Of a stretch of 64,000 nt of DNA, positions 10,629 through 63,916 are shown piece by piece. Made by a program: the position numbers and the translations under genes. The DNA comes from Isurus oxyrinchus. Its lineage: Eukaryota. The notes beneath the pieces were generated by a model. It was not told the origin of the DNA, made no database searches, and was given only the letters and a program-made list of their open reading frames with translations. The stretch spans positions 744,001-808,000 of the forward strand of contig JANJGN010000131.1 of the NCBI GenBank assembly GCA_026770705.1, read 5' to 3'. Positions within the stretch are counted from its first letter, which is position 1, and each line of letters opens with the position of its first letter.

Positions 10629-11530
10629 TGAACATACTGACTATTGTGACACTGTCTCGGGGAAGGTGCGGTCTCTCAAAATGTGTTTCCCTTTACCTGG
10701 TGTCCATGGCAACCGCGGATCTACTGGTCGTTATCCTTGATCTCATATTCAGGCAAATTGCTATTCTTTACTGGGCTCAGTTTCAGTTCATGTGGAGGTT
10801 TAAAGTGTGTAATATCCATGCAGTCCTGCTTTATGCAGCCACAGATTGTTCTGTCTGGTTCACAGTCTCTTTCACCTTTGATAGATTTCTGGCTATTTGT
10901 TCCCAGAAGTTGAAAACAAAATATTGCACCCAGCATACGGCGGCTGTGGTTCTCGGAACAGTCAGTCTGCTATTCTGTGTGAAGGATTCATTCTGGTACT
11001 TTATGTATGTAGGTCATTATTCGCTTTCCAATGCTCCTTGGTTTTGCACATTAGTGACGGATGCTGAATTCTCATCAATGTGGGCAGCAATCGAATGTCT
11101 TCATTATATTTTAACACCATTTGTGCCATTTGTTTTGATTTTGATGTTGAACGCTTTAACTGTCAGATATATTTTAGTGTCGAGCAGAGCCCGCAGGAGA
11201 CTCCGGGCTCACTGCAGTGGGGAGAGACCCAGGGACCCACAGATGGAGAAACGCAGGAAATCCATCATTTTACTGTTTGCTATATCGGGGAATTTTATCC
11301 TGTTGTGGTTAGTTTTTATGATAAATTCTGTTTGTAATAGGCTATATGTGTTAGATGCTATTCCTGTATACCTTCCTAGGTTTGTGCAGGAACTGGGATT
11401 TATATTTCAGCTCCTGAGTTGTTGCACTAACACGGCCATTTATGCAGTGACCCAGACTCAATTCAGAAATGAGCTGAAGAATGTGGTGAAATATCCCTTT
11501 TCTGTAATTTTTAAATGTATTAAACAGTGA
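10629..11530 (+). CDS. GPR139-like: GPR139/GPR142-like orphan GPCR gene 1, exon 2
   Basis: Pyrimidine tract and ccttacAG| at 10628. Uninterrupted 7TM ORF with NILTIV (TM1), MATADLL (TM2), C3.25, FTFDRF (TM3), PWFC (ECL2), RRKSIILLF (TM6), NTAIY (TM7), FRNEL (helix 8), stop TGA at 11528-11530. Confidence 0.93.
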
Positions 11531-14229: not shown

Positions 14230-15200
14230 CCCTGGGGTGATGTTCAGCGAGTTCAGGGAGATGGTATCAGTAGGAATGAGCTGATCAGGAATACAGTTCA
14301 TTATCAAAGCAGAAGGGAGAATGACAGCGCTAATGGATTTAACAGAAAAGGTGGAAGTGGAGAGTCGGCCTGTGTTTACTGGAATAAGGACCATGTATAT
14401 GCTGAACGGAAAGGGGTGTGGCAGGGCGAGGTGCAGGCTGCGTCTGTTTGTGTATTTAAGAGAAAATGGAAAGCCAGTGTCTCAGTATCCGATCGGCCCC
14501 AGGATCTGTGAACAAGCCCCATGTTTATGGTTACTTGCAGCATAAAGTTGGACCCCATCTTTGAGTATTTTGGCGGTTTTGAACCCCCCCCCCCCCCCCA
14601 CCCCGCACCCCCCCCCCCCACCCCCGTATGTCCAATAGACCTAATGCTCTGTAATAATTTGCAGGATGTGTACTTAATAATATATCAGTGCCAGACACGC
14701 CCCAGCCCCTGGAAACATCCCTTGGTTTGTGCTCCGTATTCTGCCTGTGTTATATATCTAGCCTGTGGCATCCCCACTTCAAAGTGTTTAATCGGACATT
14801 GCAGAGGGATCTTGAACAATTTTCTGACCCTGATTGCACCAACGGTGGGAGTGTTTGATGGGGTATTTTAAAGGATGTTTTCTGCTCCAATTTCCTGTCC
14901 TATATCAGCCTCCAATGAAGCCGAACCCTACAGTTTAGAATTGCCAGACATGTGACTGTGACTGTCCAGAGTGAAGTCACCGAGGTGACCCTCCCTGTTC
15001 AATCATTCCACCTCGGGCAATAGCCAGAAACAGGCAGAGGTAAAGGTCTCCTTACACGGATGGGGCGATGGGTGTAAGCAGAACCCCGACAGGAATGGTA
15101 AAACGGGGAGAAATGTGTCACAGGGAAAATGCAGCGGTGTCGATGGGCCTTGGGGAAAGGAATTCAGCAAAGTCACAGTTAGTTCACTTTTCATTCCAGA

Positions 15201-15559
15201 TTTATTAGTAATATCAGAGAATATTTCACAGGAAATTTTATTTTAAAGTTAACAGAAGTGAATATAATGCCTGAGGTCACGTTGGGAACAGAACACATGC
15301 GCTCTGATTTGGTAAATTGTATGTACCACTGGAACATAGATCAGAAAGAGAAAACTGAGGCTCAAAGGAAAGGGAAGGGGGTAATAACGAATAACGAATG
15401 AAAACGTTACTTAATTACAATTCAAATCCTAACTCCAGGGAAATTAGATGCTACAATTACATTACAACCATTTTCATCTCACACCTTTCATACATGAAAT
15501 CGGAAATACTGCTACAGGTTCGGTTACAGATTCGGGATCACAAAGTGAAGACATTTCAC
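15201..15559 (-). pseudogene. Immunoglobulin heavy-chain TM2 exon and 3'UTR (orphan remnant)
   Basis: ctaaAG|GTG AAA (VK) at 15559, 241 nt after the TM1 donor. Reads VKCLHFVIPNL* (stop ends at 15524). AATAAA on the minus strand at 15201-15206. Confidence 0.65.
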
Positions 15560-15800
15560 CTTTAGAATCACCAAGAGAACAGATTTTATATTGGAGTAGA
15601 GAGACCTGAAAAAACAGCTGAGGAAAAGCTACGAGGTCCAAATTCAACCGATCACTTGATCTGTAAAAGAAGGAGACAATAATGAAGCAGATATTTATGA
15701 TCAGGTGCATTGATGTTATTACTTTTAATTGTTGAAATGTTTAGAACATTTTCAGACCGCTTCTGCCAGATTGTAGCATGAGTGGATTGAATCTTCTCAC

Positions 15801-15928
15801 CTTTACCAGAGTGACGGCAATGCTGTCGAAAATGCTCAGGAAGAACAGGACGATGAATGTTAGAGATTTTGTCCAGATGTTCCCGTTATCGTCCTCATAG
15901 CCTTCAATCCAGATGTGGTCTGTGGAAT
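15801..15928 (-). pseudogene. Immunoglobulin heavy-chain transmembrane exon TM1 (orphan; shark IgH membrane form)
   Basis: AG|(D)STDHIWIEGYEDDNGNIWTKSLTFIVLFFLSIFDSIAVTLVK|GTGAGA: acidic spacer plus the antigen-receptor TM pattern (compare IgM [29 protein letters not shown]). Phase 1 start, phase 0 end. The conserved YS is mutated to DS. The 5' boundary may extend to ~15978. Confidence 0.85.
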
Positions 15929-18299
15929 CTACACGGATATTACCGAGGGGTTGGCCAATGGGAACCTCAATTAATCTCAGCAAAAAAAAAATAACGACAA
16001 GAAATCAGATAATACATTAAAAATTATGTGATGTCAGAATAAAGCTGGAATTTATTCATGTGAAAGTACCTGTTATTACATAGAAACAGATAACACTCAC
16101 GAGGAGAAAGATGGAAAGGCAAGGTGTCACGTCGACGCCATTTCATCGGAACATTCACGTCTTCAGCATCCAGTGCCTTTTGTTATGTTTACGCCATTGC
16201 TTTTTTGACTTGTGCACGTTTGCCTACCATTTTATAGCCGTTTATTTAATTGAGGATAAAATTATTAATATTTTATTTCAGTTTTGCGGTAGCTAAATGG
16301 ATAACAAAGCTTAGCATTGCACTGCACAGATGGAGGCCAGTACACGCATTATTCCTGTTCCTGAAAGTGCTATTCCATTTGTCCGGTTCCAATGCTCTTT
16401 CTCATAGTAATTTATTTTCCTTTCTAAATAGTGATTCGTTTTTGGAAGAAATATTATCCAGTCTGCTTCTACCACGTGTTCAGCTTGTGCATACACAGGT
16501 CACCATGAATAACTTATTTAAAAAGTCCAGATATCCCCAGTGGTTTTTTAACAGCTCCCACCAAAATAAAACAAACAGAAAAGAAATACAGAGAGCAGGA
16601 ATTGAATATAGTTATTACTACGAGTGCCAAGTAGGAGCGATAACCCATGGGGATAGCAACTTTAGCCACCATTTACCACAATGGACTTGAATGAGCTGAT
16701 CTCAGTGTTGGGAAGTATAGTATAAAACATTTGCGTACCACGCTAATTTAGGAAGGGCTGAGGTTTTGCTTATGCTAAGGATAAATGTGACCAAATACAA
16801 GAATATCAAAAACTCGTGAGGATAAATGGCAAAGTAATTTGATTCTGAACAAGATTGAAGTGCTGTAATTTGGTAGGAAGATTAAGCCGAGGAAATCTAC
16901 TGGTTGGAAATTATTATCTTAAATGAGATTAAGACTCGGGGTCATCTAAAATGGTAGTGCTTCAAAAATCAAGGAATTCCCATTGAGATAAATGGGGCAA
17001 TATTTGCAGATGATTGGGAAATTTCAACTGATTAAATGTTCCAAGATAAATTTTTCACGAATATGTCCACTGAATAGTCCACGCATGTTGACTGAAAGTC
17101 CAATCAGCACGTCCATAGAACTCCCCTAACACTTTTAACTTTCGTTGATAGTTCATCGACCTGAAACAGTTAACTGTTTTTTTGTTCTCAATCCCGAGAT
17201 GTTATCCAGCCGACGAAATGTGTCCAGCATTTCCTCGTGCATATAGAAACACTCTCCGAAGAGAGCACAATAAATTGATACTGTATTTTTTTCATGTTAT
17301 TGGTGTGGAATATTGAGACAGACAAATTTTCAATCATCAGTAATTGCGACCCAGAAATATATTCTTTTACTGTTAGTAGAGAAGTGGGAATAGTCGAATT
17401 TCGTGCAGATATTTAAAACATCTCCATGGATTAAAAAAATGACTTTTTTTATAGAGCGTGTCAGAGAATCGTTGTGACTCAGGTCACATTGCGATCAACA
17501 TGGTTGATGAACAGCTGTCCAAAATTCAATTCTGATTCGTCGACCTAAGTGGCCACTTAAATTTAATCGAGCTTCCTTATGCAAATACGTAAGCAACCTG
17601 CAGGGTGCCGCACACAAATCAAAGAGAAAGCCCTGACTATTAAAGAGTGGTTGGTGCTCCAGAAAAGCAGATGCAAATTTGATCCAGGAAAGTACAAAGT
17701 AATGAGTTTGATGTTCAGAGTGTGTAATGCTGTGCAACCGTTGCTGCAAATAAAGCCATGGAACACATGGGTGTAAAGTTATCTCAATATATAGTCGATA
17801 TATGTTCATGAAAGGGAGTCTGTATCATTAAACTTCACTAGGTAGGGTCCATTTAATGGATGTGATACCCTTGGCTTTTTTAGTCCTTGTACGTAGTTCA
17901 TCTAGGAATCAGTTGCTGGAATCAGTGGATATATTTTTCAAGGGGTTACTAGCATGTTGATGCATAGTGCCTATAAGGCATGGATACAGAGATGAATTGG
18001 CCTGAGGGGCTGTTAAAGTGGATATCCTACAGTCTCCTTATTTGAACCTTTTTTTTTAATGCCGTTAATAATTACCCGAAGCTCGATGACACAACAACAA
18101 TGGCCGAATTTGTGGAGGAAACAAAGCTGTTGAAGATGGTCGACTGCAAAACCTGAGGAAGATAAGCTGTAGGATGATGTTTGGAATTGGAGAGACAGAC
18201 ATTATTTGCACTTCAACAGAGAGAGATGGTAAAAAAAATGCCACATGTCGACCAGAAGTACAGTGAGCCTTTCTTCGGTCACCAGGAACTGTGGGAATC

Positions 18300-18860
18300 G
18301 ATTGTTAAGAATTCTGAACAACTCATTAATAGATTTATGCTATGATTGGGGAGGATCTTCATGGCTTATGATAGTGACATCGTTTTTGCCCCCTTTTAGA
18401 TGCCAGTTGATGTCATAGACTTGGACTTCGAACTTAAATCCCTCAAGATTCCACACAAAGGTTAGTTCGTAAGATGATAACTCATGGGTTTGAAGCGAAT
18501 CTATTAGCATGAGTAGAAGATCGGTCAATGTCGAGGAAGCAAATAATACGGTTTACTGGGCACTTTCAGGCTGGCAGGCTGTCACCAGTGGAGTGCCGCA
18601 ACTTTCAATGATGGCCTCAGCTACAATTTGCATTAATCACTTCGGAAAAGACCTGGAAAATAATTGAGTTGCTGACGATTCAATGCTAGGTGCGGATGCA
18701 AGCTGTGAGGTGAACACAAGGAGGCTGAAAGTTGATGTCGAAAGCTTAAGGGAGAGGGCAACAGATGGACTTCCTATCGGAGCACAAAGTGCACAAATGT
18801 GAAGTTGTATACTTTGGCGGTAAGAAATGGAAATATAATGTTTCTAAATGGCGTAAATCA
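18300..18860 (+). mobile_element. Highly decayed CR1-like LINE fragment
   Basis: ctggcaggctgtcaccagtggagtgccgca (W..VTSGVPQ), gttgctgacgattcaatgctagg (FADD-like) and KCEVVYFG. Confidence 0.65.
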
Positions 18861-18879
18861 TCCAAATGTTGCTGCTTAA

Positions 18880-19395
18880 TGAACCTCGAAACGGGCAAAG
18901 TACAGAACATATCCAACCGGCTGGGCCATGCTGGTAAAGCTCAAATTACAGTGTTCAACATTGGATGCGATTCCAGAACTCGAGAACATTTGTTAAAAAA
19001 AAATGAATTGCACTAAGAATAACGCTGACAACCAATTTAGATTATCATTTGGGCTTGCAGAATGTTGCATTTGCATGTATTTGGACGCTGCATATTTTAA
19101 TACACAGGGCCCTGTTCTTTGCAAGCAGAAAAGACATGCACACACATTGTGCCTGGTTCAGCTAAACACAATAAATGACAGTCATTCGCTGACTCATTCC
19201 TCAAGGCAATGCATTGACTAATCAAGGCCAAGCTGCCTAGCTAAAGTTTCAAACAAAGCTTAGGAGTTAACTTTCAGTCGCCAGAATTGGTGCATTCTCC
19301 ATGACAATTCCTCTGCCGGAGTCCACTTGCCAAGCAATCAGCACTGTCTTCACATGCAGTATAAATTGCTGTTTTCCTCTTACATCGGTATTCTT
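18880..19395 (+). mobile_element. Penelope-like element 3' portion (GIY-YIG endonuclease C-terminus and terminal repeat)
   Basis: Peptides CDSRTREHLL, CTKNNADNQFRL and LDAAYFNTQGPVLCKQKRHAHTL match the PLE endonuclease C-terminus pattern. Confidence 0.7.
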
Positions 19396-19429
19396 AAAAA
19401 GTGACCTTACGAGTCAAAATATGTTTCTA

Positions 19430-19900
19430 ATTGGAGGAAGATTTCGCCAGGAGTTGGTGTCAGCACCTTTTTCTGGATATTTATAATGGCTTTGACTTGG
19501 GTGTACGTGACATAATTTCAAAGCTTACAGATGTGACAAAACTTGGAAATATTGCAAACCAATGTGACGAGGGTGCTGAACTTCCAAAAGCCATAAACAG
19601 ATTTATAAAATGGGCATACAAGTTGGTAGATTAACTTTAACGTAGCTATCTGTCAAGTGGATCATCTTTGAATGAAGAATAAGGATAAAAAAACTCGATT
19701 AAAGGATATGATGGTAATGGGATTGCAGGAGCAAAATACATGTCCCATATGTTTATAAATCGGCATACAGGATGTTTGATCCTATAAGTAGCAACCTAGG
19801 ATAAAAACACAAGAACGTTTTGGCTCAGCTGGAGCATTTGAGTCCAGTTCTGGGAAGAACATTTTGCAAGGAATTTATAGCTTTCGAAATAATGACAGGG
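19430..19900 (+). mobile_element. Decayed CR1-like LINE fragment
   Basis: Peptide LFLDIYNGFDLGVRDIISKLTDVTKLGNIAN. Confidence 0.65.
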
Positions 19901-19923
19901 ATGAGGAACATCTGTTACAAGTT

Positions 19924-20030
19924 AAAAACAAAAACAGAATTACCTGGAAAAACTCAGCAGGTCTGGCAGCATCGGCGGAGAAGAAAAGAGTTGACGTTTC
20001 GAGTCCTCATGACCCTTCGACAGAACTTGA
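19924..20030 (-). mobile_element. Short, little-decayed Penelope-like terminal repeat
   Basis: ctggaaaaactcagcaggtctggcagcatcggcggagaagaaaagagttgacgtttcgagtcctcatgacccttcgacagaac, same family as 14023-14229. Confidence 0.65.
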
Positions 20031-20039
20031 GGGAACTTG

Positions 20040-21190
20040 ACAGAACTTATTGCACAAGTTAAGAGCCCGTGGTATTGAGAGAAATGTATTAGCATGGACT
20101 GAGGATTGGATAACAGAGAGGAGACAAAGAGTCTGGATTAATGGGTCCTTTTCAGAAGCGTTGGAAAGACGCAACAAATGGAGTGCCACAGTATCAGTCC
20201 TAGCACCTCAACTATTTATTAGCTATTGCAATGACTTGGAGGAGCGGACAGAGTGTGATGTATCCAAATTTGCTGATGCTACAGCAATAGGTGAGAAGAC
20301 ATGTTGTGAAAGGACATAAGGAATGTAAAAGGTGTTGTAGATAGGTTGAGTGAGTGAGCAAAAACACTTGGCAGATGGAGTTTAATGCCGGAAAGTGTGA
20401 GGTCATTCACTTTTGTAGGAAGAATCAAAAGGCAGACTATTATTAAAATGGAGAGAGACTTCAAAAACGTGCAGGCTCTGATTGTTCCTGTGTACGAAGC
20501 ACAAAACGTTAACATGCAAATGTAACAAGTAATTAAGAAGGCAAATGGCATTTTGGTCTGTGTTGCTAGGGGGTTACAGTTTAAAAAATAGAGAGGTCTT
20601 GTTACAAATATGCAGGATTCGGTGGGGCCCCACCTGGAGTGCTGTGAACGCTTTCGGCCCCTGTATTTAAGAATTGATATATTGGCATCAGATGCAGTTC
20701 AAAGGGGATTCGTTAGGCTGATTCCTGGGATGATGGAGTTGACTTATCAGGAACGACTAAACACATTAGGACTTTATTTATTAGCCCTTCGAAGAATGAG
20801 GAATGATCTTATTGAGACGAACAGAATCCTGAGGGGAGGGGTTGCTTGACAGGTAGATGTTGAGAAAATGTTCGCTTTAGTGGGGGAATCTCGAGCTAGG
20901 GGACGTAGTTACATAATAAGGGGCCACACATACAAAATGAGTTGCGAACGAATATCTTCTCTCTGAGAGTATTGAATGTCTGGAATTCTCTACCCCAGAG
21001 AGTTGTGGAGGCTTGATCTCTGAAGGTATTTAAAGAAGAGATGGATAGATTTTTGAAATATCGTGAGTTGAGCTTCATGATGAGCTGTCAGTAAAGAGGA
21101 TTTGAGACCTGGTGCAGATCAGCCATGATGTTATTGAATGGCGGGGCAGGCTTGAGCGGCCTAATGGCTTACTGCTGTTGCAATTTCTTA
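20040..21190 (+). mobile_element. CR1-like LINE fragment with 3' end
   Basis: Peptides HKLRARGIERNVLAWTEDWITERRQRVWING, DVSKFADATAIG and VGPHLECCERFRPLYLR. Confidence 0.9.
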
Positions 21191-21209
21191 TCATCACTTA
21201 GCTATTACC

Positions 21210-21625
21210 ACCGCATCGACAAACAAACAGTCCCTGCACCACCGATGCAAAGAGGCAGCAGTTGTGAACAACGTACAGGATGCATTTCAGGAACTCACCA
21301 AGGCTTCTTAGACATCATCTTACCAACCTACGATCTCTACTGCCTAGAAGATCAAGGGCAAGAAATAAATAAGGACACCATCGAATTCAAGTTCTCCTCC
21401 ACGCCACACACCATCCAGACTTCGATCAGATCATCGCTCCTTCACTGTGGTGGAGGTTAAATCTTTGAACTTCCTCGGTAAATGCACTGTGCTGTATGTA
21501 CACCACATGGACTGCAGTGGTTCAAGAACGCGGCTCACCATCACCTTCCGAAGGACAATTGGTGATTGGCAATAAATGTTAGCCTAGCCAGTGAAGCCTA
21601 AATTCTGGACACAAAATTTGAAAAA
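21210..21625 (+). mobile_element. 3' end of second CR1-like family
   Basis: Reverse complement of the tail at 8110-8500 (cacatggactgcagtggttcaagaacgcggctcaccatcacc). Confidence 0.7.
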
Positions 21626-21739
21626 AACCTAGGAAAATTTATTTAGTTTGCAGAGATCGAGTCCTTGTTTATGAATGCATGTTGCCCCTGACAAGTTTTA
21701 ATGAACCACGTGAACAACTTGACTGATTACCTTGAAGTT

Positions 21740-22200
21740 CTTGCTAGTGTGCCGCAATTAGCGCACTCAAGGCTTCTCAATGACTGTGACCATTCGTGGA
21801 ATCATTTCTAACTGTTGGAGTTTTGATTCGAGTTTTACAAGCGCGGGCTGCTTCAATTGGATCTTTGTTCGGTATATTACGTACCGGGTGGAGGGACATT
21901 TTGTTTGACTTGACCGACCAATCGCTGAGATCTCTGACTCACTTTGCTGGCGCTGGGATTCATACATTGCGTTACTCAATTGCCTGGTGAGTAGAAACTT
22001 GGCTTGTTCTATTATCTTCAACCAATTCGTGGACAATACCACTCGTGTCGCCGTTGCATAGTGCCAACATTTTTTTTTTGTTGCTCCAATTTTGGGCTAC
22101 CTGAGTCTTCCCGAATAATTTGAGATATACCCAGGTCTTTTCAGGCCCGAAAGGGAAAGCTGTGACCATTTAGCGAGTTTGCCTAAAGCACTGCGGACAA
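21740..22200 (-). mobile_element. Penelope-like element fragment (RT-endonuclease linker)
   Basis: Minus-strand peptides FGPEKTWVYLKLF and VLSTNWL...QLSNAMYESQRQ resemble the PLE linker and GIY-YIG start. Confidence 0.65.
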
Positions 22201-26355: not shown

Positions 26356-26392
26356 TTGTTCGGTAGAACAGAATGTGAGAGTGCTGATCAAA

Positions 26393-37750: not shown

Positions 37751-37774
37751 TTTTAAGGAACGCATGAAGGTTGA

Positions 37775-40700
37775 TTTATGAGTTCCCAGGCATTCTGTTT
37801 CTTGTGTTGACAGGATTATTGGCAATGATACGGATGCTGCATAATATAGTTTAATTGATACTTCAATATTGTAATTTACACCTCAATTTCTTCATTAAAC
37901 GGGTCATTTATTTTACATGCTTAGATGTTAATTTTACATTGATATCGATGTAAATTTAACTCACGATGGTTGCGGTGTGTACAAAGCTCATCTAATTTGT
38001 TGATGGATCATGCAAATACAGTTGAATTGACAGGGAGTGACAGCTGATTCGCAGGATTTGTATGCGGGCCTCAGCTTTTCACCGCATTTAGAAGGATCAA
38101 AATGAAGCAACAGTAAGTTTCGTATCCAAATTGCTGCAGAAAATAAGCCATGTGGTACAGTAAATAGTTTAGAGAAGAACAGGACATTGCGAAGGGTTGT
38201 TGTTGGATAACTGAATGAGCAAACTGTGGGAGAAGGAATACAATTTGTGGAAAGGTATTTTTCTCTGGTGCTTTAAGCTTAACCATTGCACGTCACCATA
38301 TTTTCTAATTAGCGTGAAACTATAAATGATAGTGGTAAGTATTTTCCATGTTTTTGTTCACCCGCCACATGTTTATTGGTGTTCGATTTGCATTGCGTAA
38401 CTTTAACATCAATCATTGCAGTCGATGAATTGTTATGAAGACCATTTTTAACTCTGTTGCTGCTGTTAACAACTGCATTCAATTCTCTTTAGAGTGCACT
38501 TTGTTTTCAAGGCTGTGAGATACCCTTCGGAGCTGGAAATAATTATATTCGTAGCCACTTTATTTAGCTCAACTAAATTTTGAAATCTCAGTGTTCATTC
38601 GGAAAGCCCTGGGTTTGTTCCCTACTTCCGAACTGGTGTCTGTAGCCCAGCTCCATGCCGCTGAGGAAGTCCAGCACTATCTACTCTGTGGTCCTTCCGA
38701 CGAGGCTGTAAACCGAGGTCTTTCTGCTTTATCAGTTGAAAACCCTCACTACTGCTGCGAGACCTAATCTCCCACTACAGCAGTCACTGAACTGAATAAA
38801 AGCCTTTGATGCGCTTTGTCTTGCTTCCACAGGGACAAAACCCAAGTTGAATCAATGGTGTTCGCTTAGATTTTCTTTTTCAACGTACATTGGTTCCTTC
38901 TGATACTTATTAGGATTTCGTTATTACCCATATCTTATTTCCTGTCATTCGATTGGTTTCTTTATTATAGTGATTTAAAGTTTCATAACGTTATTATTTA
39001 CTGTATTTATAAATGAATAAATGTATTGAGCTTTTATCTGTATTTTATGCCATTTTCAGGTGGTTGTCCTTTTGCCAATTTAATACGTTAGTGAAGATCA
39101 ATTCCTTCTCCTTCTAGATTACATAAAATGTACATGAATCGGAAAGTAACAGTTTTGTGTCATTTTGTATTCCGACTTCCACTTTATCTGAGACAATATA
39201 AATAAAAAATGGACCAGAATTAATGCATTGGTAAACTAATCAGTTCCAGCGTTGAATGAAGTATCGATGGCCCATGTGCCATACCATTCTCCCGCCAAAC
39301 GGACATTGTAGCTGGGAGATTCAGCACTAATTCTTCCCTTCTCTCTCATCTCTTTCTCTCTCTCTCTCTCTCTCTCGCTTGCAGCTAATTTTCTGACTAT
39401 CGTGATCCGTTCCCGAGGAAGATGTGGTCTTTCCAGATACGCAGTATCCATGGCGGTGACAGATCTCCATGTTATTATCATTACACTGGTATTAAGCCGG
39501 TGTTCGGCTGTTTATTTTCCAGTCAGTTTTCTGAGCCACTCAAAAGACGAGACAGAAACATTCTAAATCTGAATTCATTGTATTCTACGTATTTTTTTCC
39601 GGAATTAGGTCTTTTCAATCTTTGTTTAACTGTGAAGGCTTGAGGGTCAGATGTTTACTTTCTAGCTTCTACCGGATGTTTGGCTGCTCTCCAACAGTAA
39701 AAGATTCAAGATTGCTTAATGTGTTCCTGCGATTTCTGTGTCGTGTGTTGACGGACTTTTTGGCAATGATACAAATGCTGCACAATGTAGTTTAATTGTT
39801 ACTTCATTAATGTCATTATTTCTTGAATTTCTTAGTTAAACAGGTCGTTTATTGTACTTGCCTAGATGTTAATTTACAGTGATATCGATGTAAATTTAAG
39901 TCACGATGGCTGTGGTATATGCAATGTTCATCTAATTTGTTGATGGATACTGTGAATACATTTCAACTGACAGGGGGTGACAGCTGATTCGCACGATTTG
40001 TATTTGGGTCTCAGCTTTTCACCGCATTTAGGAGGTTAAAAAATGAGGCAACAGTAAGTTTCGTATCCAAATTGCTGCCGAAAATAAGCCATGTGGCACA
40101 GTAAATATTTTGGTTAAGAAGAGGACATTGCGAAGAGTTGTTGTTGGATAACTGAATGAGCAAACTGTGGGAGAAGAAATATAATTTATGGAAGGGTGTT
40201 TTTTGTGGCGCTTTGAGCTTAGCCATTAGGGATCAGCATATTTTCCAATTGGCGGGAAACCATAAATATTAGTGGTATGTATTTTTCTATATTTTTGTTT
40301 ACCCTCCACATGTTTATTCGTAAATTTATCAAATAGTTGCTATCGATGAACTGTTATGAAGACTTTTTTTTAACTCTGTTGCTGCTATTAACTGCTCCAT
40401 TCAATTCTCCTAAAATGTATTTTGTTGTCAAGGCTATGTGATACCCATCGGAGCCGGCATTTATTATGCTCATAGCCACTTTATTTCGGGGATCTAAATT
40501 TTGAAATATCAGCGTTCAAGCAATGGGTTTGAGCCCTACTCCCGATCTCGAGTTCCTAACCTAGCTGCATACTCCTGAGGAAGGACAGCACTATTTGCTC
40601 TGTCGCACTTTTAATCAGTGGAGGTCTTTCTGCTTCTTCAATTGAAAATCTTCACTAATAATGCGAGAACTAATCTCGCACTACAGCAATCATTGAGCTG

Positions 40701-41251
40701 CAAAAAAACCGCTCATGCTCCTTGCCCTGTTTCCACAGGAACAAAACCCGAATTGAATCAATGGCGTTCGCTCAACTTTATTTTCCATCGTCCCGTGGTT
40801 CCCTCATTTATTTATTTGGAATGAGTTATTATCCATATCTTATTTCCTGTCATTCTATTGCTTTAAGTATTATAGCGGTTCCATAACATTTCATAACGTT
40901 ATTATTTACCGCATTTTAAACGAGTAAATGTATTGATTTATTATCTGTACGTTATGCCATCTTCAGGCTGCCCTTTTGTCAATTTAATACGTTAGTCTTG
41001 TTCAATTCCTTCTACTTCTAGATTGCATAAACTTTACAAGAATCAGAAAATAAGTGCTTTGCGTTATTTCATGTTCCAACCTCCAATTTATTTGGGACAA
41101 TATTAATAAAAAAAAACCAGCCGTACTACTTTGCTAAATTAATCAGTTCCAGCGTTGAATCAAGTATTCATGATATAAATTCCATACCCTCTCCCACCAA
41201 ACCGCAGGTGTAGCTGAGAGTTTCGGCACTAATTCTGTTCTTCTCTCTCTC

Positions 41252-41282
<31 letters not shown>

Positions 41283-41457
41283 GCCTTACAGCTAACTTTC
41301 TAATGATTGTGATCTTTTCCAGAGGAATATGTGGTCTCTCCTGATGTATCACGCAATATCTGGTATCCATGGTGGTGACAGATTTCCTTGTCATTAGCAT
41401 TAGCGTGACATTAAGCTCATTTCCAGCTGTTTATTTTCCAGTCAGTTTTCTGTCCAG
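37775..41457 (+). repeat. Tandem segmental duplication (~1.75-kb units at ~37775-39537 and ~39712-41457)
   Basis: Colinear matches throughout, e.g. tcagcttttcaccgcatttag at 38071 and 40011, aagtttcgtatccaaattgctgc, aatcagttccagcgttgaat. Each unit ends in a GPCR exon 2. Confidence 0.9.
39385..39537 (+). pseudogene. Truncated GPR139-like exon 2 fragment
   Basis: (CT)n-gcttgcAG| then ANFLTIVIRSRGRCGLSRYAVSMAVTDLHVIIITLVLSRCSAVYFPVSFLS, with an internal deletion and an abrupt break after ECL1. Confidence 0.85.
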
Positions 41458-42197
41458 CATTCCTCTATGTCGTCCTTGTTGCTTTAAACTTTGGCTCCAA
41501 ATGTTGTACTCTCTGGTCAACCTTCAAATTCACCTTTTACTGCTTCCTGGCCATTTGTCACCAGGAGCTGGAAATGGAATACTGCAGTTAGAAAACAGCA
41601 ACTGGAAATTTAGGAATGATCTGTGTGCTGTCCACTTTGATAAACACCCTTTTTATTTCATAAATGAACCTATTTATATCGTTAACAATGTAACTCGGTG
41701 CTCTCTCATAGATGATGCATTTTATATTTCATTTCCATGGAGAATATTTGAATGGCTGGACTGTATTCTAACTCCATGTCTCTCCTTTCTCCTGATTTTG
41801 CTGCTCGATATTGAGACTTTCTGAAATATTCTACTGGCAAGTAGATCCTGCAGCAGACTCTGATCCCAAAGGAATGGAGAGAATCAGAGTGTCTCCGAGA
41901 TGAAGAGCCACAGCAAGTCTATTGTTGTACTCTTCTCCATCTCAGGCAGTTTCCTCCAGCTGGTCTTAACGCATATTGTACGTTTCCTGTTTGCACAAAG
42001 TATGGGAAATAGCTGATCTATCAGTTCCATTTCCATTGACACAAAATATATTCTGCAGCAAAGCTGATAGTTTTTTAACTCCTTAGACCCTGTAGCAATA
42101 CATTTATATATGCAGGGACCCAGACGAAATACAAAGCGGAGCTGAAAAGGGCGTTTAAATACTCTTTCAATCTATTGCCAAATGGCACAAACTGTGA
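41292..42197 (+). pseudogene. GPR139-like pseudogene, full-length decayed exon 2
   Basis: ccttacAG| then ANFLMIVIFSRGICGLS*CITQYLVSMVVTDFL, with in-frame TGA at 41342, frameshifts and later stops. Recognisable ILTPCLSFLLILLL, KSIVVLFSISGSF and IYAGTQTKYKAELK. Confidence 0.9.
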
Positions 42198-43469
42198 CAA
42201 TGGCGGGATAGTTATTTGAAGTCTTTGCGATCACAAGAGATGAGAGTCAGTGTAAGCGTTTCGGCCCAACAATCCTGCTCCACCATACAGTAAGTTCATG
42301 ACTGATGTGATCCTGGTCTTAACTCCGTTTTCCTGTCAGACTGAGTAACCATTGGATCCCCTGTCGATCAATAATTTGTCTAACGATGCCTTGAATATAT
42401 TTAGTGCCCCTGCCGCCTCTTGTTTTCTGTAGCAGACAATTCCAAAGTCTCTGGAACCTCCTCATCCCCTGGTACTTTCCCTATGAGCCTTCCTTTATCA
42501 TTAACAATAGACCTGGATTTTGCCATGGAAAATCACAATAAATAAAATCTCTCCGGCCGAGATCAGTCTTCACTGAAAATCATTCTGCAGAACTGTAATT
42601 GCCCAAATTGAATGTAAGCTCATTGATCAAGCCAACTGCACAAGAAGCATAGCTGCTGGGAAGTTAAAAGGTTCATGCTGGCAGTACCAGTGATCAACTT
42701 GGACTGCCCACGACAATGAACTTCAGAAGCTCACATTAAAAGTAAGAATGCAGAACTAAACCAGTCCAGTCTGAATGCAAATGTCCTTGTAAACACTTAT
42801 TAGCACCGAGCAGACTTTGATAAGTCTGCACGAAACAAAACCATGCTCAGCCGGTCCTGTCTCCATCGATAGAAAGTGTTCACAGCCGGGGCTGTGCACA
42901 TGGTATGTTGTTGTGTTCCACCGGACAAAGTTGACAATAACCGGGCAAAAATTCGTTTATGTACATTCAGTGTAACAGGATAGAAATTGGCCTGTTCGTA
43001 CTGAGTGCAGCTGTGCACAATTTAACCTGAATGCAGTGAATGCAATTTACTGAACTGGACAGTCACAACGGTATGATTTATCCCTAAACTGGTTTTCCAC
43101 TTAACAGTGATTGCAAGCGGGCTGAACGGGACTCGTTACATGGTATATAACCATGTCGACCTGGAGCGCTCCACCATTAATTTAATGATGCACATTGTGC
43201 TCAACAGGAGGTTGTGTTCTCTGCATGTGAGAGCACTGAGCTTAGCCTGAAAGCACCAAGCACACACGTCATGAACTGGATCTTGCCACACAAAAAGTAA
43301 ATTCACACACCAGTGCACATTCGTTATTGCCGGGATTGACATGGCTACACTAACTGATTTGAACTAGTCCACAATGGAAGTAACTGTGCCAAACTAGGTG
43401 TGCGCACTGTGAATATAACCGTGCTGAGCTGCACATTTCTACATTGAATGTAAACACCCTGAATGGAAT

Positions 43470-45517: not shown

Positions 45518-45587
45518 ATGCATGGGATACCACAAGGTCTGGTGTTCGCCATTTACTATCCCGTTCTTGCAGCTATCGGTATTCCAG
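45518..45587 (+). CDS. GPR139-like: GPR139/GPR142-like orphan GPCR gene 3, exon 1 (joined protein 326 aa; alternative in-frame ATG at 45509)
   Basis: MHGIPQGLVFAIYYPVLAAIGIP, then G|GTAAAG donor at 45588. 70 nt, phase 1. Confidence 0.9.
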
Positions 45588-46852
45588 GTAAAGTATTAGG
45601 GTTAGTTACCAGTTACCAGAATCATTTTTCACTCTATCACTTATTTAATTTAGCTGTACTGCTTCTCTATGGTTCACCTCATTAACATGATAATTTGTTT
45701 TTTATAATGTATTCCCTTTTTCACAGTATCCTTATCTCCACGTTTAGTGAATTCTTCTTTTAAATGATATTAAACCTTCCCTTTCCTCGCAATATTACTG
45801 CTCATTACTGGTCCATTTTCTCCACTTTAAGGGTATCATTTCTCCCCTTCACGAGAACAGTTTCTTCCCATTGCCAGTACACTTAAATCCATTTCAGCAA
45901 TTACTATGATTGCTTCACCAATGCCGTTTCATTCTCTTTCACTAAAAAGTTTCTCCCACTTAGCAGTGCCGCCTCTCAGTCTAAATGTAATTAGATGTTG
46001 TTATTGTCATTATTAATGTGGGCGAAGTATTTAGCACACTAGTATCACACTGCAATGTAGATCTATTGTATTGTTGGCACTGTCACCATGGATGATTTAT
46101 CACGCTGTAAATGTAGCTCTATTGTGTTGTTGACACAACTATTGAATTACCTCACTTTGTTGTGTGCATATATTGCTCCTTGCGCTGGAATCTGAATAAC
46201 AGCTATTTCTTAAGTTGGATTTTGTATTCACGAGTTATTGGACCGGTCCTCAGTCTTTTGTTTTAGCTGAAGTATAGCACATCGGACAGTGCAACCTTGC
46301 TGAAGTCCAACAGTTGGGCTTGAACGCTAAACCTTTTGACTCAAAAGTGAGATTGCTGCAAACTAAGCCACACCTGAACCATAGTAAGCATGATCAGCTT
46401 TAGTCGTGGCTGTGAAGCCTTGTTCCTTTAAATTCGAATTGTTACAGCTCAGATGCATCAGATCTCCTTCATCTTCTTTTCAGTTAAGTAGTAGCTTTTT
46501 TTTTGCTGAACTTTTTTCAAGCTCTATAAAGTATTTGTTAACCTTAGAATTTCCAATGTTCCAGAGTATTCTTATATTTTCTCGTCTCTAAACATTGAAT
46601 GAGAACAACATCGATTGTATTTCAGAGTCACAATCCAGATCGTTCAAGGTTCTCCTTGGGTTAGCCCTCAGTGTTGCTGACAGTACAGAACAGATTGCTA
46701 TGTTTTAGGATATTTTCCTCCAGATCATCTCTCTGACATGCTAACTTGTTCCTCTCTTTTCAACTGCTGCCTGACTGAGAATCTCCAACAGTTTATGTTC
46801 TAAATTTCTTTCTCAACATCTGCTATTCGCTGGCTGCGTTTCGCTGTCACAG

Positions 46853-47763
46853 CTAATCTGGCAGTGATTGTGATACTGATTCGAGGAAGATGCGGTCTCT
46901 CCAAATGTATCACTTACTACTTGATGTCCATGGCCATAACGGATCTCCTTGTCGGGATCACAGTTGTGATATTAAACCGGATTATAGGTATTTATTTCCC
47001 GTTCAGTCTCCTGGCCATCACACCGGTCTTCAGCCTCAGACTTGTGCTAATTTATGGTGTCATCGATTCTTCTGTCTGGGTAACAGTGGCTTTCACCTTT
47101 GACCGATTTGTAGCCATTTGCTGCCAGAAGCTGAAAATTAAATATTGCACTGAGAAAATGGCGGCTGCGGTGATAGGAACTGTCTCTGTACTTAACTGCG
47201 TTAAAAGCATTCCCTTGTATTTTATGTGTGAGCCTGCCTTTATAATTGACAATATACCCTGGCAATGCAACTCAAAATCAATATTTTATACGTCACCTGC
47301 ATGGGTCGCTTATGAAAGCATAATCGCCGTTTTAACCCTTTGCCTCTCCTTCGTTCTTATATTACTGCTCAATGCTCTGACCATCAGACACATTGTAGCG
47401 GCCAGTCGAGCCCGCAGGAGACTCCGGATCCAGAGCAATGGAGAGAATCAAAGTGACCCAGAGATACAGAAGAGAAGGAAATCCATGGTTTTGCTCTTCT
47501 GTATCTCGGGCAGTTTCATCCTGTTACATTTGTTAAGACTTATAAACTTCCTCTATGTCCGAATTGCGAATCTTAGCTATGTGGACTCTACCAATTTCAA
47601 TGAATCAAATTTTCTTATGGAGGAAAGCGCACGTATGCTTCAGCTCCTGAGTTCTTGCATCAATCCGTTTATTTATGCAGGGACCCAGAGTAAATTCAGA
47701 GAAGAGTTAAAGAATGGTGTGAAATTCCCACTGAACCTGCTTGTTAAATTATTTAAAAGATGA
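46853..47763 (+). CDS. GPR139-like: GPR139/GPR142-like orphan GPCR gene 3, exon 2
   Basis: ctgtcacAG| at 46852. Open 7TM frame ANLAVIVILIRGRCGLSKC...FTFDRF...NPFIYAGTQSKFREELK, stop TGA at 47761-47763, AATAAA at 47768. Confidence 0.93.
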
Positions 47764-53545: not shown

Positions 53546-55304
53546 CTGTTACAGAAGCATCACTTTACCCTTTGACTTTTTAACTGATATTGTGCCTAAT
53601 TGTGACGAAGTATTAATATCCGACTCTAACATTGACGGAGTAAATGATGCTTTGGTCAAATACGTTGAATGACCACATGTGTTGGGCTCCATATCCTCTT
53701 GCAAGTAATTGACCAATTTTGAAGGATTTTCTGCGGTGTGCTCGCACAGATTGCCTGAATAAACAAACTTTCCTGATGGAAAGACACGAAGAGTTGGGCT
53801 CGTGATTCTTATACAGTTTTTGACATATGCAGTGTTTACTCGTGCAATTGAATTCATACCAAAGAGCCAAAAGTCGTTTTTTTCTGATCAAGATGGTTTT
53901 CATTACTCTGAATGGATATGCACAATGTAAGTCTATTTACTGTACCGTGAACTGAGGCTGTAACAGAAAAGGAGAAAAGCTTTGCTACAGCTGTACAAAT
54001 CCCTGGTTAGATTACATGCTGGATTCCTTGTATAGTTCTGGGAACAGAACATTAGAAATGATAAACATTGGTCTAGAAGCAGGCCAGCACTGATCTACCA
54101 GAATGCTTGGAAGGTTTTAATATTTAGACTCAGGCGCCATGCCAGTTATTACAGCAGGACAACTGTTGGTTTCCGCCTGGTGCCTCAGCTTGAAATGAAT
54201 TTCAGGATGTTAGAGTCAATGTGCAGCAAATATCCACATTAGTAATACCATGCAAATTCAAACAACTATACTCAGTATCTGTTCCATGATTCAATGTTTA
54301 AAATCAAAGTTGTAATATTTGTATTCTCATTTTGAAATTAGGCACTCTCCACTTTGCAACACAAAACGAGTTGTAAACCTGGCGGAGTTGCACCATTTGT
54401 TGCAGTGAAGAAACAACTCCGGACTGGAGTGCTGTTTTCAAAGGTCAGTTGTGATCGGTTGATCAGGAGTAATGCGTGTATCTGTGTAAACAGCAAGCAG
54501 AAACATCTGTCCCATTGCAACCCATATTCAGCCTTACACCACCATCTTTAGTCAGTTAACTTTTTGTGCATTGTGCATTAGCACAGCCCATCTCACCCCT
54601 TTCCTTCACTTCTAATCTCCGCCTCTATAGCTGTTCTCGACCAGTGGACACGTGAATTTTCCAAAACCTGATGCGAAATTTTAACTCTCAGCCCTCGTTT
54701 TATTCTTTCAATCAAGACGTAATTCATGCTAGTTTTGACAATTCGCATGATGTCAAGTGTTGTGACTAGCCAATCTGGTAACTCGTGTTTTCTTTTAGTT
54801 TTAGTAATAATAATTGATGTGGGGAAGCATGGATTTGTGTCGTGGGTAAACAATAATTACAGTTCACTGGATAGTCCATGTCTGCATAAAGAGGCCAGAT
54901 CTGCCAGTGTGAAATCCTTAAAGAATAGGCAGCTTTTCATGGTGTGGACGTACTATCTGCAGTTGTCTTCATAAGGGGTTCAAGTAGTCATGCAGCTCCC
55001 AGATCAAAGAAACTACAAGTGCCAGAGAAGGCATTAGGGTTTGTGTATTAGACAGGCCCACGTTTTTGGACCACATCACCTTGTTTAGGCTGATTTCCTT
55101 TTTGAGTCATCGAGGCCCCAATGTCCAACAGGTTCTGCTCCCTCTCAAACCTGAGGGAAGACAAATTCTAGCGAAAGCTTGTAGAATTTCTGTTCAATAG
55201 TATGTCTATATCAGATCTGCATTGGTCCCAATCTCTCGGAATCGTTCTCATGTTTTTTGCCCGGTTCAGCATAAGAAGGCCGACAAGATTTTGTCTCGAT
55301 GGTG

Positions 55305-56245
55305 TTTATGTGCCATATATTTCCTGGCCTCTAGGAATTAGCCTATGGTTGTGCCAACGGCAATATCAGTGTTATATATCGGCTCTGCAACTGCTCTGCT
55401 TTGTAAGTGTTTAGCCGGACAGTGCGGGGGGGGTGGGGGGGGGGGGGGGGGTGGCGTTGTGGGGGGTGGGGGCACTCCGCGCCTAACCAGAGCTGTAGAG
55501 GCCTGGGAATATTTTATGTGATACGTAAAGAACGTATTCTTCCTCAAACATTGTGCTGCATTAACCTCTGAGGAAGAGTGCCTTTATTATTTAGAACGAC
55601 CCGACGCTGACTGTGACAGATCAGAGACGTCACTGAGTTGCTCTTCGCCATTCCATCATTCTGCTTCTGGTTTTTACCATAAAAGGGAAGGGGTAAACAT
55701 TTCTTTACACGGGTGGGGCGTTGTGTGGTGAATCGCGCTTTGACTGAAGGGCCTCGAGTTCAAACACTTTGCAGACAGGAATCGTGTGAAATACCAGTCT
55801 GGAAAGGAGGAAAACGTGAAATAGGGAAAATGCAGCCATGTCGATGAAGCGAGGAGAAATGAATTCAGCAAAGTTATACTTGGTGCAATTATCATTCAAG
55901 ATTTATTAACAATTTCAGGGCATGTTTTGTAGAAATTATTCATTTAAAGGTCACAAAAGTGAATTTATCATTTGAGCGTCACATTGAGACGACCCCATAT
56001 GCTCTGAGCTGCCAACTGTAAGAAGAAGTGTAACATAGGCCAGAAAGAGAAAACAGAAATTTAGCATAAAGGGAAGGGGATAACAGCGAAAGAAAAGACA
56101 TATTTACAAATGCAATTCAAGCTATAGTGAAATTATAAGCGACAGTTATTTTAAAATAATAATTATCTCGCGCATTTCAGACAGAAAGGTGGAAATACTT
56201 CCACGAATGTCTCAATTACAGATTCAGAATCATAAAATGAAGATA
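55305..56245 (-). pseudogene. Second copy of the Ig heavy-chain TM2/3'UTR region, truncated by a repeat insertion
   Basis: Colinear with 14680-15550 (gtgttatatatc; tgactgtgac; ttacacgg.tggggcg; agggaaaatgcagc..tgtcgatg; gaattcagcaaagt; cagaaagagaaaac; ttacagattc). Minus-strand AATAAA at 55902-55907, and rc YLHFMILNL* at the break. Confidence 0.7.
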
Positions 56246-56249
56246 GGCA

Positions 56250-60780: not shown

Positions 60781-61690
60781 TTATCGTCCAAATAATTTAA
60801 CAATTTCAAGTAGTGGATATTTCACCCCATTCTTTAACACCTCTCTGAATTTACTCTGGTCCCTGCATAAATAAACAGGTTTGCGCAGGAACTCAAAAAC
60901 TGAAGCATGTATGCTTTTTCCTCAAGAATGAATGTTGAAAGATTGATTTCAGAGCTTGAAAAGTATTTAACATTTCCAATTTGCACATAGAGGAAAGTTA
61001 TAAAAATTAACAAGTATAACAGGATGAAATTTCCCGATACACAGAAGAGTAAAATGATGGACTTTTTCCGCTTCTCCATCTCAGGGTCACGCTGATTGTC
61101 TCCATTTCTCCGGGTCTGGAGTCTCCTGCGAGCTCTGCTGGCTGCGAGAATGTGTCTAACTGTCAGGACATTGAGCAGTAAAATCAGAATGAATGGGAGA
61201 CAAGGGGTTAAAATGTGATCAATGCAGTCATAGGCGATCCATGCAAGTGAGGTATAAAATATCACTTTTACATCGCAGAACCAGGGCACATTGTCAATTA
61301 TGTACAAAGATTCGTATATAAAATACTGGAAGGTGTTTTTGACACAGCTGATTGTGCAGATTGTCCCTATAACCCGTGCCGCCGTTTTTTTGGAACAACA
61401 TTTTACTTTCAGCTTCTGGCAACAAATGGCCACAAATCGATCAAAGGTGAAAGCTGTAGTTAACCAGGCAGAGCTGTCTATGGCTGAATATATTAAGGCT
61501 TCACGGAGACTGCATACTGGTGTGATTGACAGGAAACTGAGTGGGAAATAAATACCAGCAGTCCGGTTCAATATCACAGCGGTTATAATGAGCAGGAGAT
61601 CTGATACCGCCAGGGATTGTAAATAATGCGTTATACAGGTGGAGAGGCCGCATTTCACTCGAGAAAGGATCACAATCACCGCCAGGTTAG
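60781..61690 (-). CDS. GPR139-like: GPR139/GPR142-like orphan GPCR gene 4, exon 2 (1-bp frameshift after TM7; as sequenced stops at 60834)
   Basis: (CT)n-tttattgcAG| at 61691. Open through all 7 TMs. GGG ACC AG AGT lacks one C of ACC CAG at ~60858. The ancestral tail SKFREVLKNGVKYPLLEIVKLFGR* continues in the other frame to TAA at 60781. Confidence 0.85.
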
Positions 61691-62889
61691 CTGCAATAAA
61701 GAGAGAGAGAGAGAGAAGTTGGAAAGAGACTGAGTTTGTGTGTGTGTGAGTTTGGGAGAGAACGAATACAGGAAGGTTACTGCTCAAACTATAAACAAAT
61801 CAACAATTGTATAGGATTCTGCATGAATTTGTACATTTCAGATGTGTTCCCCAGTTGCGCAATTGCAATGGGCAAGTGATTCAGCTTTGTAAATTGAAAT
61901 CTTAATTCAATATAGGTCAGGTCAAAGTTATATGAATGTCAAATATTTTAATAAAAACTAATGGAGAACAAAAGACATCGTTAACATTGAGAAACCAACC
62001 TAGAATTTTTGTATAAGCAGGAAGAAAGTGTACGCTTCTGCAAGGCATTGCAGGAAATATGGTCTAAAGTAAGTAACAAAACAAGCAACAAAAAGTGTGG
62101 AAACTAACAAGGGCGCGGATTATATCTCACTGAAGATCAATATAGTTCCTTTCCTATATAATAATTGGCAATAATTATTGAAAATTATTCGTTGTTGTGA
62201 ACTTCGGGAATTAAACCTGCTTCCAAATATCGACATACAGCGAGGAGTAAAGGGGCAATAAATGATTTCTGATCTTCCAGACAGGGCGTTTGCCTGCATG
62301 TGAAGATACATCCTAGCTCCTCACATATAGTCAACTGGAAGATCGGTGTCGATCTGAACCTTTGGAAATGGCGGAAGCCAAAATCTCCTTCCGAGTGAGG
62401 TCCTCTTGCAATGCAGCACTGACTCCGTACTGCACTGCACTTTCGGGATCAACTATCAACGTTGTCCTGTAATAGATATTTCAAATCAAAGCATTGCGCC
62501 TGAGATGTGAAAGATGCAGCCAAGTAGACAGCCTCATTCAATATGGACAAACAGCGGAGACGGGAAAATGTGGGACATTGTCCGGTGATATCAGCAGAAG
62601 GAAATTCCGACGTCAACAGTGGTCAAGTCGAAGCGTCAGCAGCAGTTCAAGAACCAATTAGTGTTGGAGACTGAGAGCAGAAACACACCTCTGTGATCGT
62701 GGTGCTAATATAGAATATTCATCAAAAGTCTATTATTACATTGTTCATACATCTGTCAAAAACTGGGTACTCATGATGTCCTTCCATCAAATTCGTTGGG
62801 GGAATATTGAATGTTACATTGCCCTCTATCAATGAAACATTCGTGGGAATTTTTCGATCATTGTCAATGTGAACAACACAACAGATTTA

Positions 62890-63300
62890 CATTTGCACCG
62901 TGAAAACAGTGTGATAGCTCATCCACAGTTCGACTGTCAGTAACAGAAGATGATCCATTTCACAGTGTGTTTAAAGTGTGATAACATAACCACAGTTCGA
63001 CTGTCAGTAACAGAACACGAACATATTCATACTGTGATTAAAGTGTGATCACTCAACCACAGTTAGACTGTCAGTAACAGAAGGTGATCACATTCACACT
63101 GTGATTACAATGTGATAATTCACCTTCAGTAATGATACCGGAAACACAATGGAAAAACATTTAGACTGTAATGTCACTGTTAAAATACACCTGCAGTAAC
63201 AGAAGACAATTACACTTGCACCGTGATTACAATGTGATAATTCTCCTTCAGCAACAATGCCAGTAACAGAATGGAAATGCAATTGCACTGTGATAATAGT
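62890..63300. repeat. ~62-bp tandem repeat in intron of gene 4
   Basis: ccacagttcgactgtcagtaacagaa recurs at ~62923, 62990 and 63057, then decays. Confidence 0.8.
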
Positions 63301-63339
63301 GTGAAAATGCACCAGTACTAAATGGCGCAAAACACCATT

Positions 63340-63780
63340 GAAGATGGTAATATAATACCACTTACAACGAAAAATTACACCCTTATAAGGGGGATATTAT
63401 ACCGCTAACAGCGAGAAATTTCACCCTGAACAGGGTAATATTTTACCATTAACAGCGAGAAATTACACACTTTGCAGCGTGATATGATAGCACTTAAATT
63501 GTGAAATTTTGTTTTTAACAAGGTTATATTATGCCACTAACAGCGAAGAATTGCACCTTTAATAGCATATTATTAAGCCATTAGCGGCGAGGAATTTTAG
63601 GCAAAGGGAACAAATTATATTGTCAAAATTGAGACATTATGCCTATAAAGTGGGGAAAATGTTCTTTTAGAGGGGTAAAATATACTTGTTAAAAGAGGGA
63701 AATTGCTCCATTAATGGGGAGAATTGTACAGATAAAGGGCGAAATGGGAGAATGGGTATAACGTTATGGATATTAAATGC
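63340..63780. repeat. ~43-bp degenerate tandem repeat in intron of gene 4
   Basis: Repeated taatattttaccattaacagcgagaaattacacac-like units. Confidence 0.7.
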
Positions 63781-63846
63781 TTTTAAAAGGTAGAATTCCT
63801 GCAGATAACCGATTTCCGTATCAAAATAGTAATTACAATACTTTAC

Positions 63847-63916
63847 CTGGAACCCCGAGAGCTGCAAGGACTGGATAATAAATGGCAGACAGAAGGTCTT
63901 TTGGTGATCCGTGCAT
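63847..63916 (-). CDS. GPR139-like: GPR139/GPR142-like orphan GPCR gene 4, exon 1
   Basis: ATG at 63916 gives MHGSPKDLLSAIYYPVLAALGVP, then G|GTAAAG. 70 nt, phase 1. Confidence 0.9.

Follow-up and report, generated by a model that had tools for sequence, protein, structure and literature searches.

The window, by which we mean the whole 64,000-nucleotide stretch of Isurus oxyrinchus DNA that was analyzed, carries on its minus strand a piece of immunoglobulin heavy-chain (IgH) sequence lying among genes for G-protein-coupled receptors (GPCRs). We interpret this piece, with a probability of roughly 0.8, as a fragment from the 3′ end of an elasmobranch IgM heavy-chain cluster, non-functional and consisting of the first transmembrane exon (TM1), an intron, TM2, the untranslated region (UTR), and flanking sequence, and produced by a rearrangement at the DNA level. 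That the intron and the flank past the poly(A) signals have been kept argues for such an origin. The coordinates of the features are collected in Table 1.

Table 1. Features of the window, in order of position
Feature	Coordinates	Strand	Remarks
GPR139-like GPCR, exon 2, divergent subfamily	10629..11530	+	tail to tail with the first remnant; exon 1 not located
Genomic flank past the poly(A) signals	14670..15200	-	common to the second remnant and contigs of organisms A and B
3′ UTR	15201..15651	-	AATAAA at 15242-15237 and 15206-15201; contains the earlier TM2 site, 15559
Likely TM2 coding part, Ile-Lys-stop	15652..15660	-	predicted from acceptor and tail length
TM1-TM2 intron, 140 nt, GT..CAG	15661..15800	-	predicted
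TM1 exon (spacer and transmembrane helix), assigned to IgM	15801..15928	-	frame open; homology and splice sites
Interval holding the junction of IgM-derived sequence and GPCR flank	15929..22200	-	repeat fragments at about 18.4-21.9 kb
GPR139-like GPCR, intact, 325 aa	27722..30090	-	exon 1 30090-30021 (phase 1), exon 2 28629-27722
GPCR pseudogene pieces	39381..42532	+	39381-39536; 41291-42177 (4 stops); 42464-42532
GPR139-like GPCR, open frame	45518..47763	+	inverted copy of the 27.7-kb gene; the duplication includes the intron and about 3.4 kb of 3′ flank
Second, more diverged IgH 3′ remnant (UTR and flank, without TM exons)	55292..56245	-	AATAAA 55907-55902; nhmmer E 4.5e-75
GPR139-like GPCR, C-terminal frame change	60790..63916	-	upstream of the second remnant

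Identity of the First Membrane Exon

The 43 residues encoded by positions 15801-15929 of the minus strand (as translated) are identical to the peptide first reported in the first-pass annotation. The acceptor AG, at 15930-15929, is in phase 1, such that the first codon is split, and the donor, GTGAGA, follows directly after 15801, after a Lys codon. In a tblastn comparison with a catshark IgM-type protein TM1 scored E 7e-16, as against E 1.1 for the next match in the window, and six of the seven best PDB matches of the TM1 peptide were membrane μ chains (best E 3e-4). The peptide was assigned to no family in Pfam and had no usable match in the ESM Atlas. With significant homology to the TM segments of membrane Ig heavy chains, 15801-15928 is an IgH membrane exon. 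The earlier claims of a minus-strand TM1 exon with a GTGAGA donor and of an antigen-receptor TM segment are thus borne out, the translation being exact and the homology far above chance.

TM1 agrees at 34 of 43 residues (79%) with two IgM-type models of Scyliorhinus torazame (GCB75424 and GCB60865), at 33 of 43 (77%) with the nurse shark μ membrane forms AAT91061 and AAT91062, and at 58% with horn shark P23088. Its sole match among the longer proteins searched was one S. torazame V-CH-TM model (79%), and a library-wide search returned six matches, four to shark IgH of the μ type and two to unrelated repeats. In the extracellular spacer (the first 19 residues), 16 of 19 residues are the same as in the S. 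torazame IgM-type models, which makes IgM the best assignment, as judged by closeness to the IgM membrane forms that were compared. TM exons do exist in IgNAR and IgW (in the accessible parts of PMC8692893 and PMC5192425, respectively), but, given the spacer match and the four μ-type chains among the library-wide matches, derivation of the exon from either of these isotypes is quite unlikely. The comparison with shark Ig membrane forms that the first-pass annotation had called for therefore yielded significant IgH matches, with IgM as the best isotype. Two draft IgM models of C. punctatum are truncated, P0004 retaining only TM and the terminal part of the last C domain, and P0006 only V-CH1-TM; these are partial clusters or prediction errors.

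TM2 and the 3′ End

The first-pass annotation placed the start of TM2 at 15559, 241 nt beyond TM1. We consider this site less likely, since its acceptor is AAG and it would give a tail of 10 residues, unlike the two-residue tails of the references. In contrast, the acceptor at 15660 reads CAG, has 16 of 20 pyrimidines, and would add Ile-Lys-stop. A two-residue tail follows the TM1 Lys in all 12 elasmobranch-type membrane μ proteins compared (VK in eight, IE in two, AK in two), four of which were deposited from horn or nurse shark under the name of Ig heavy or μ chain, the rest being gene models or one unnamed protein; the closest homologue, P0002, ends in Ile-Glu. TM2 thus probably starts at 15660, and with this start the phase-1 acceptor, the donor after a Lys codon, and a short TM2 with a two-residue tail are all present at the sequence level. 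A further AG, the third, lies at 15605 with 17 of 20 pyrimidines; it would give a long tail unlike that of any reference.

Read evidence was drawn from contigs only, over 14650-19650, in 4 of the 24 listed runs and with half of run X4. In run X21, one paralogous contig aligns on either side of 15532-15639 and not to 15532-15639 itself, and two X4 contigs lose alignment at 15640; other contigs cover 15605-15634, which counts against TM2 at 15660. In the two runs presumed to be RNA, no contig was listed with a TM1-TM2 splice at any of the acceptor sites, and paralogous contigs read through the TM1-TM2 intron unspliced. The poly(A) signal noted previously was found as AATAAA at both 15242 and 15206. 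A processed retrocopy was rejected: the intron is kept and homology continues for ~530 nt beyond the poly(A) signal, shared flank that argues against retrocopying.

Search for Other Immunoglobulin Exons

No V, J, or CH exon and no recombination signal sequence (RSS) was found in the whole 64 kb by tblastn, profile, ORF, and motif scans. The catshark IgM-type protein scored by tblastn on the TM exon only. When 107 Ig proteins were searched in the same way, 19 matches were counted on the TM exon, with 4 more among 25 listed others, and the best match elsewhere had E 0.011, as compared to 0.026 in a reversed-window control. This match, at 7671-7757(+) with three turtle IgH queries, was dismissed as being at control level, and the profile did not detect it. 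An IgM profile built from 31 IgH chains reached 2.4 bits at best (5.6 in the reversed control); it also missed the TM exon itself, probably because secreted forms dominate the profile and it has no TM match states, and so was without a positive control in the window. Among 205 stop-to-stop frames of at least 70 aa there were no Ig-family matches; those to other families were 7tm_1 (four), RVT_1 (two), and two below the cut-off. Scans of the window for J motifs, RSS, and Rfam families each gave zero.

For comparison, the 13 shark IgM gene models in table S1 of PMC12227049 are 8.3-25.2 kb long. V, D, or J segments with RSS, or Cμ1-4, were not found within about 25 kb upstream of TM1, and all 48 kb upstream held GPCR genes and repeats only. 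TM1 is orphaned within the 64 kb. The first-pass annotation had reported no CH, J, or V exon in ~12 kb; this statement now extends to the window as a whole, and the upstream scans for Ig exons (tblastn, IgH profile, 205 frames, and J and RSS motifs) all ended without one.

A Second 3′ Remnant

A second remnant, missed by the first-pass annotation, lies ~40 kb from the first. Positions 15553-14670 match 56245-55292 on the same strand, the pair being 71% identical over 687 columns with a score of 418 (maximum of 34 in 50 shuffles), and the distal AATAAA is common to both. No TM exons were found 5′ of the second remnant, where the TM region scored 30 against 56244-60790 (shuffled maximum 34). The second remnant is Ig-linked and is not a common repeat, because a single X21 contig links 15708 with 15340 and the summed depth over this sequence is much lower than over the repeat at 18992-19492. 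Its 5′ end adjoins G/C-skewed sequence. This stretch, 56246-57900, has imperfect inverted arms (56515-56665 versus 57314-57422) and is perhaps an inserted element.

Each remnant is located downstream of a minus-strand GPCR gene (about 12 and 4.5 kb away, respectively) and faces a plus-strand GPCR gene. The first remnant has paralogues elsewhere that are 83-90% identical to it (X21 contigs), as against 71% for the second remnant, and hence the two stem from different clusters or different times. The same identities led us to reject the idea that a unit already orphaned was duplicated locally in recent times. With two remnants in the array, it would appear that IgH clusters lay in, or were copied into, the GPR139-like array at least twice.

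The GPCR Array

The GPCR sequences of the window, which belong to 7tm_1, comprise four genes in which a long frame is open (in one of them the frame changes late), along with pieces of pseudogenes. The family to which they belong, a class A group expanded in elasmobranchs, has a two-exon gene structure and is annotated as "probable G-protein coupled receptor 139," which is an automatic annotation name and not an orthology assignment; it numbers 2363 proteins at E ≤1e-20, up to 74% identical. Among the 120 of the 2363 matches listed, all family proteins were from sharks and rays, and none was a GPCR-TM fusion.

Several rearrangements were observed within the array. An inverted duplication (22209-30020 on the minus strand versus 45590-51210 on the plus strand) takes in GPCR, intron, and 3′ flank, with non-coding identity of about 65-68%, and a direct duplication of 1.8 kb (37767-39533 and 39708-41452, plus strand, 78%) contains the first part of two exons of GPCR pseudogenes. 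At 60790-60882 on the minus strand the 60.8-kb GPCR changes frame, as a result of either a real frameshift or a sequence error. Tandem arrays with units of 67, 122, 44, and 23 nt lie at 62897-63472 (within the 60.8-kb GPCR gene, in its intron) and 51484-51718, and reverse transcriptase fragments and other dispersed repeats lie between GPCR and remnant at 25532-26209 (minus strand), 18992-19492, and 20040-21630.

The Upstream Junction

Homology between the 3′ flanks of the 27.7-kb and 46.8-kb GPCR genes reaches down to 22209, and the junction between IgM-derived sequence and GPCR flank therefore lies between about 15.94 and 22.2 kb. All 30 bins are covered by contigs of X4 (organism A) and likewise by those of X5 (organism B). 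One X5 contig bridges 15869-16132 with 15 differences, extending 60 and 203 letters to either side of the TM1 acceptor; thus, a second organism likewise has TM1 contiguous with its upstream flank.

The X5 contigs sum to a depth of 296-739 across 14650-15985, which falls to 41-133 across 15986-18490, and in X21 the alignment of an 834-letter contig begins at 15940 and continues downward only. Depth summed in this way does not give a copy number, and these values only hint that most paralogues diverge from the window sequence just upstream of TM1. Contigs from organism A (X4) with one or two differences from 17566-17770 and 18171-18384 have a depth of 408-556, as compared to 39-71 for single repeat contigs of that run. 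The upstream flank may therefore be multi-copy in organism A, representing either an intron in an intact subfamily, with the breakpoint further up in repeats, or an amplified orphan unit. Over 16650-18990 as a whole, near-identical high-depth contigs in organism A stand beside low summed depth in organism B, a possible recent amplification.

Decay of the First Remnant

The residues at TM positions 4, 5, 6, 18, and 20 are K, S, L, D, and I, each of which occurs in none of 22 vertebrate references. These substitutions (T4K, A5S, S6L, Y18D, and A/T20I) affect 5 of 26 TM residues, and two of them fall on positions, S6 and Y18, that are invariant in all 22 references. The first-pass annotation had pointed out the change of the YS pair to DS, and indeed Y occupies that position in 22 of 22 references; it had overlooked the four further substitutions. 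In mammals, T4, T7, Y18, and S19 form the face of the TM segment that binds CD79 (PMC6613136), a face that is not conserved in TM1 owing to T4K and Y18D. These two changes alter the surface that binds CD79a/b in mammals, and the same role is presumed for sharks. A shark CD79-alpha has been reported (accessible part of PMC4034164).

The splice sites, frame, and poly(A) signals of TM1 are intact, which counts against a pseudogene. In a simulation of random change, however, the TM1 frame stayed open in 85-49% of trials after 6-26 changes; an open frame is thus expected by chance and is not evidence of function. At 15820 all covering contigs, from four runs, differ from the window, and therefore Ile20 looks private to it, in a difference table that keeps the best-supported differences and so favors such rows. 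Run X24, probably of DNA, gave almost no cover of TM1, and X21 gave only the 83-90% paralogues, with no TM1-TM2 joint; these observations do not bear on expression in either direction. The first remnant has the features of an unprocessed pseudogene fragment, namely, retained intron and flank, missing upstream exons, and relaxed constraint. Having no promoter, VDJ, or C exons, it would be expected to make no B-cell receptor.

GPCR Genes and IgH in Other Sharks

In S. torazame, the GPR139-like protein XP_072357602.1 (P0115) and the partial IgH V-C chain XP_072357606.1 (P0180; 58-70% to IgM chains) are four accession numbers apart and on the same 330.8-Mb record. Because same-record GPCR paralogues of the horn shark, H. 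francisci, also have close accessions, the two catshark genes are, as judged by accession order, probably neighbors. The IgM records of the horn shark itself bear no chromosome assignment. One of the two S. torazame GPCRs looked up was near an IgH accession, and the other was far away. GPCR P0085 of S. canicula is on a record of 133,841,611 bp, which may be chr17, the published antigen-receptor chromosome, and which we have not counted as support.

The two remnants 40 kb apart and the catshark accession neighbors suggest that the large GPR139-like family shares ground with IgM clusters. They also strengthen the earlier claim that the GPCR family is intermingled with Ig loci, although in the window this holds for remnants only. 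We found no mention of GPR139-like neighbors of IgM clusters in the literature searched, the coverage of which leaves out most subscription journals, and no such link appears in the accessible parts of PMC10620051 and bioRxiv 2025.06.08.657570.

Origin of the Fragment

A DNA-level rearrangement would have cut the fragment from V-D-D-J-Cμ1-4. In its simplest form, which we somewhat favor, this would be an in-place deletion between repeats; a partial segmental duplication is a less probable alternative. The fragment would then have drifted neutrally, untranslated. The second remnant, 40 kb away, would be older and would have lost its TM exons as well. Of the first-pass proposal that a deleted IgH cluster left its 3′ end here, the orphaned IgM remnant stands, whereas in-place deletion is not separable from the arrival of a partial duplicate.

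Might the junction instead be an artifact, an IgM 3′ end mis-joined to a GPCR scaffold? Both families are multi-copy and no single contig spans 14650-19650, but the window contains no N, the contig from organism B bridges the TM1 acceptor, X4 and X5 leave no bin of 14650-19650 uncovered, and the second remnant is too diverged (71% identical) to be a collapsed copy, so that a chimeric assembly is very unlikely. Slightly less probable still is that the TM exons are part of a functional IgH gene with C exons beyond the 64 kb and with GPCR genes nested in a giant intron. The splice signals are intact and the window ends 48 kb upstream, but two same-strand GPCR genes lie in between, none of the 13 published shark IgM models (table S1 of PMC12227049) exceeds 25.2 kb, and TM1 has Y18D and four other non-consensus TM residues. 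Least probable of all is an exaptation in which GPCR exon 1 (30090-30021) splices to TM1 to give a small membrane protein independent of CD79. The two exons are on the same strand and would join phase 1 to phase 1, and the TM1 frame, splice sites, and poly(A) signals have survived; however, phases often agree by chance, exon 2 of the GPCR is intact, two AATAAA (24725 and 22218) precede TM1, the open frame is expected under neutrality, and the difference at 15820 in all covering contigs from four runs is as for a private change.

A further possibility extends the interpretation as an IgM 3′ fragment rather than competing with it. GPCR genes and IgM clusters might have duplicated together as a shared repeating unit, with the GPCR upstream of a same-strand IgM cluster, and both remnants would have lost V to Cμ4. 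Both remnants indeed have the layout GPCR(+), remnant(-), GPCR(-), the divergence of the remnant pair (71-72%) is about equal to that of the 3′ flanks of the upstream GPCRs (68%), and the catshark pair on one 330.8-Mb record, with the horn shark paralogues, would fit such a unit. Against this, the first remnant is 83-90% identical to paralogues elsewhere and only 71% to the second, the plus-strand GPCRs are of different subfamilies (52% versus 72% to P0009), and only one of the two S. torazame GPCRs is near an IgH accession, accession order being an indirect sign of position. We regard the shared unit as tentative. Equally speculative is the broader picture in which the gaps (120 to >200 kb) between shark IgM miniloci would be filled by hundreds of GPR139-like genes that co-duplicate and die as GPCR-IgM units, the window being the fossil of two such units. 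If true, GPCR-IgM units would connect the evolution of IgH clusters with the expansion of an orphan receptor family, and an immune role for that family would be testable. This interleaving is the sole part of the work that we consider worth following, and the link should show in public annotations.

Comparison with Known Systems

The fragment resembles elasmobranch IgM membrane heavy chains in its TM1 spacer and helix (58-79% identical), its phase-1 acceptor, and its probable short TM2 with a two-residue tail. It differs from them in that V, D, J, and C exons are missing and in its five TM substitutions found in 0 of 22 references. Shark IgM miniloci number 15-200, are at least 120 kb apart, and have pseudogenes among them (accessible parts of PMC2435157 and PMC5192425); the latter source counts three μ pseudogenes in the nurse shark. 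Table S1 of PMC12227049 lists clusters as "IgM missing V," "IgM pseudo," and "IgM C only," and three of seven IgNAR clusters are incomplete in the accessible part of PMC8692893. The remnants in the window are like these clusters in being partial clusters from the birth and death of miniloci. The listed clusters keep C exons, however, whereas those in the window keep TM and UTR, or UTR alone, and lie among GPCR genes. GPCR neighbors could not appear in table S1 of PMC12227049, which is confined to Ig, TCR, psmb5, and a single VSIG gene.

We conclude that the fragment is an expected by-product of ordinary birth and death of shark IgM clusters and that a function is unlikely. Its value is as a marker: annotation based on C domains misses TM-only and UTR-only remnants, and maps and counts of past IgH loci therefore miss such remnants.

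Ig pieces outside the working locus are familiar from mammals, in which they include orphons, mostly V segments, and a processed C-epsilon pseudogene. Unlike the latter, the fragment in the window keeps its intron and flank and is not processed.
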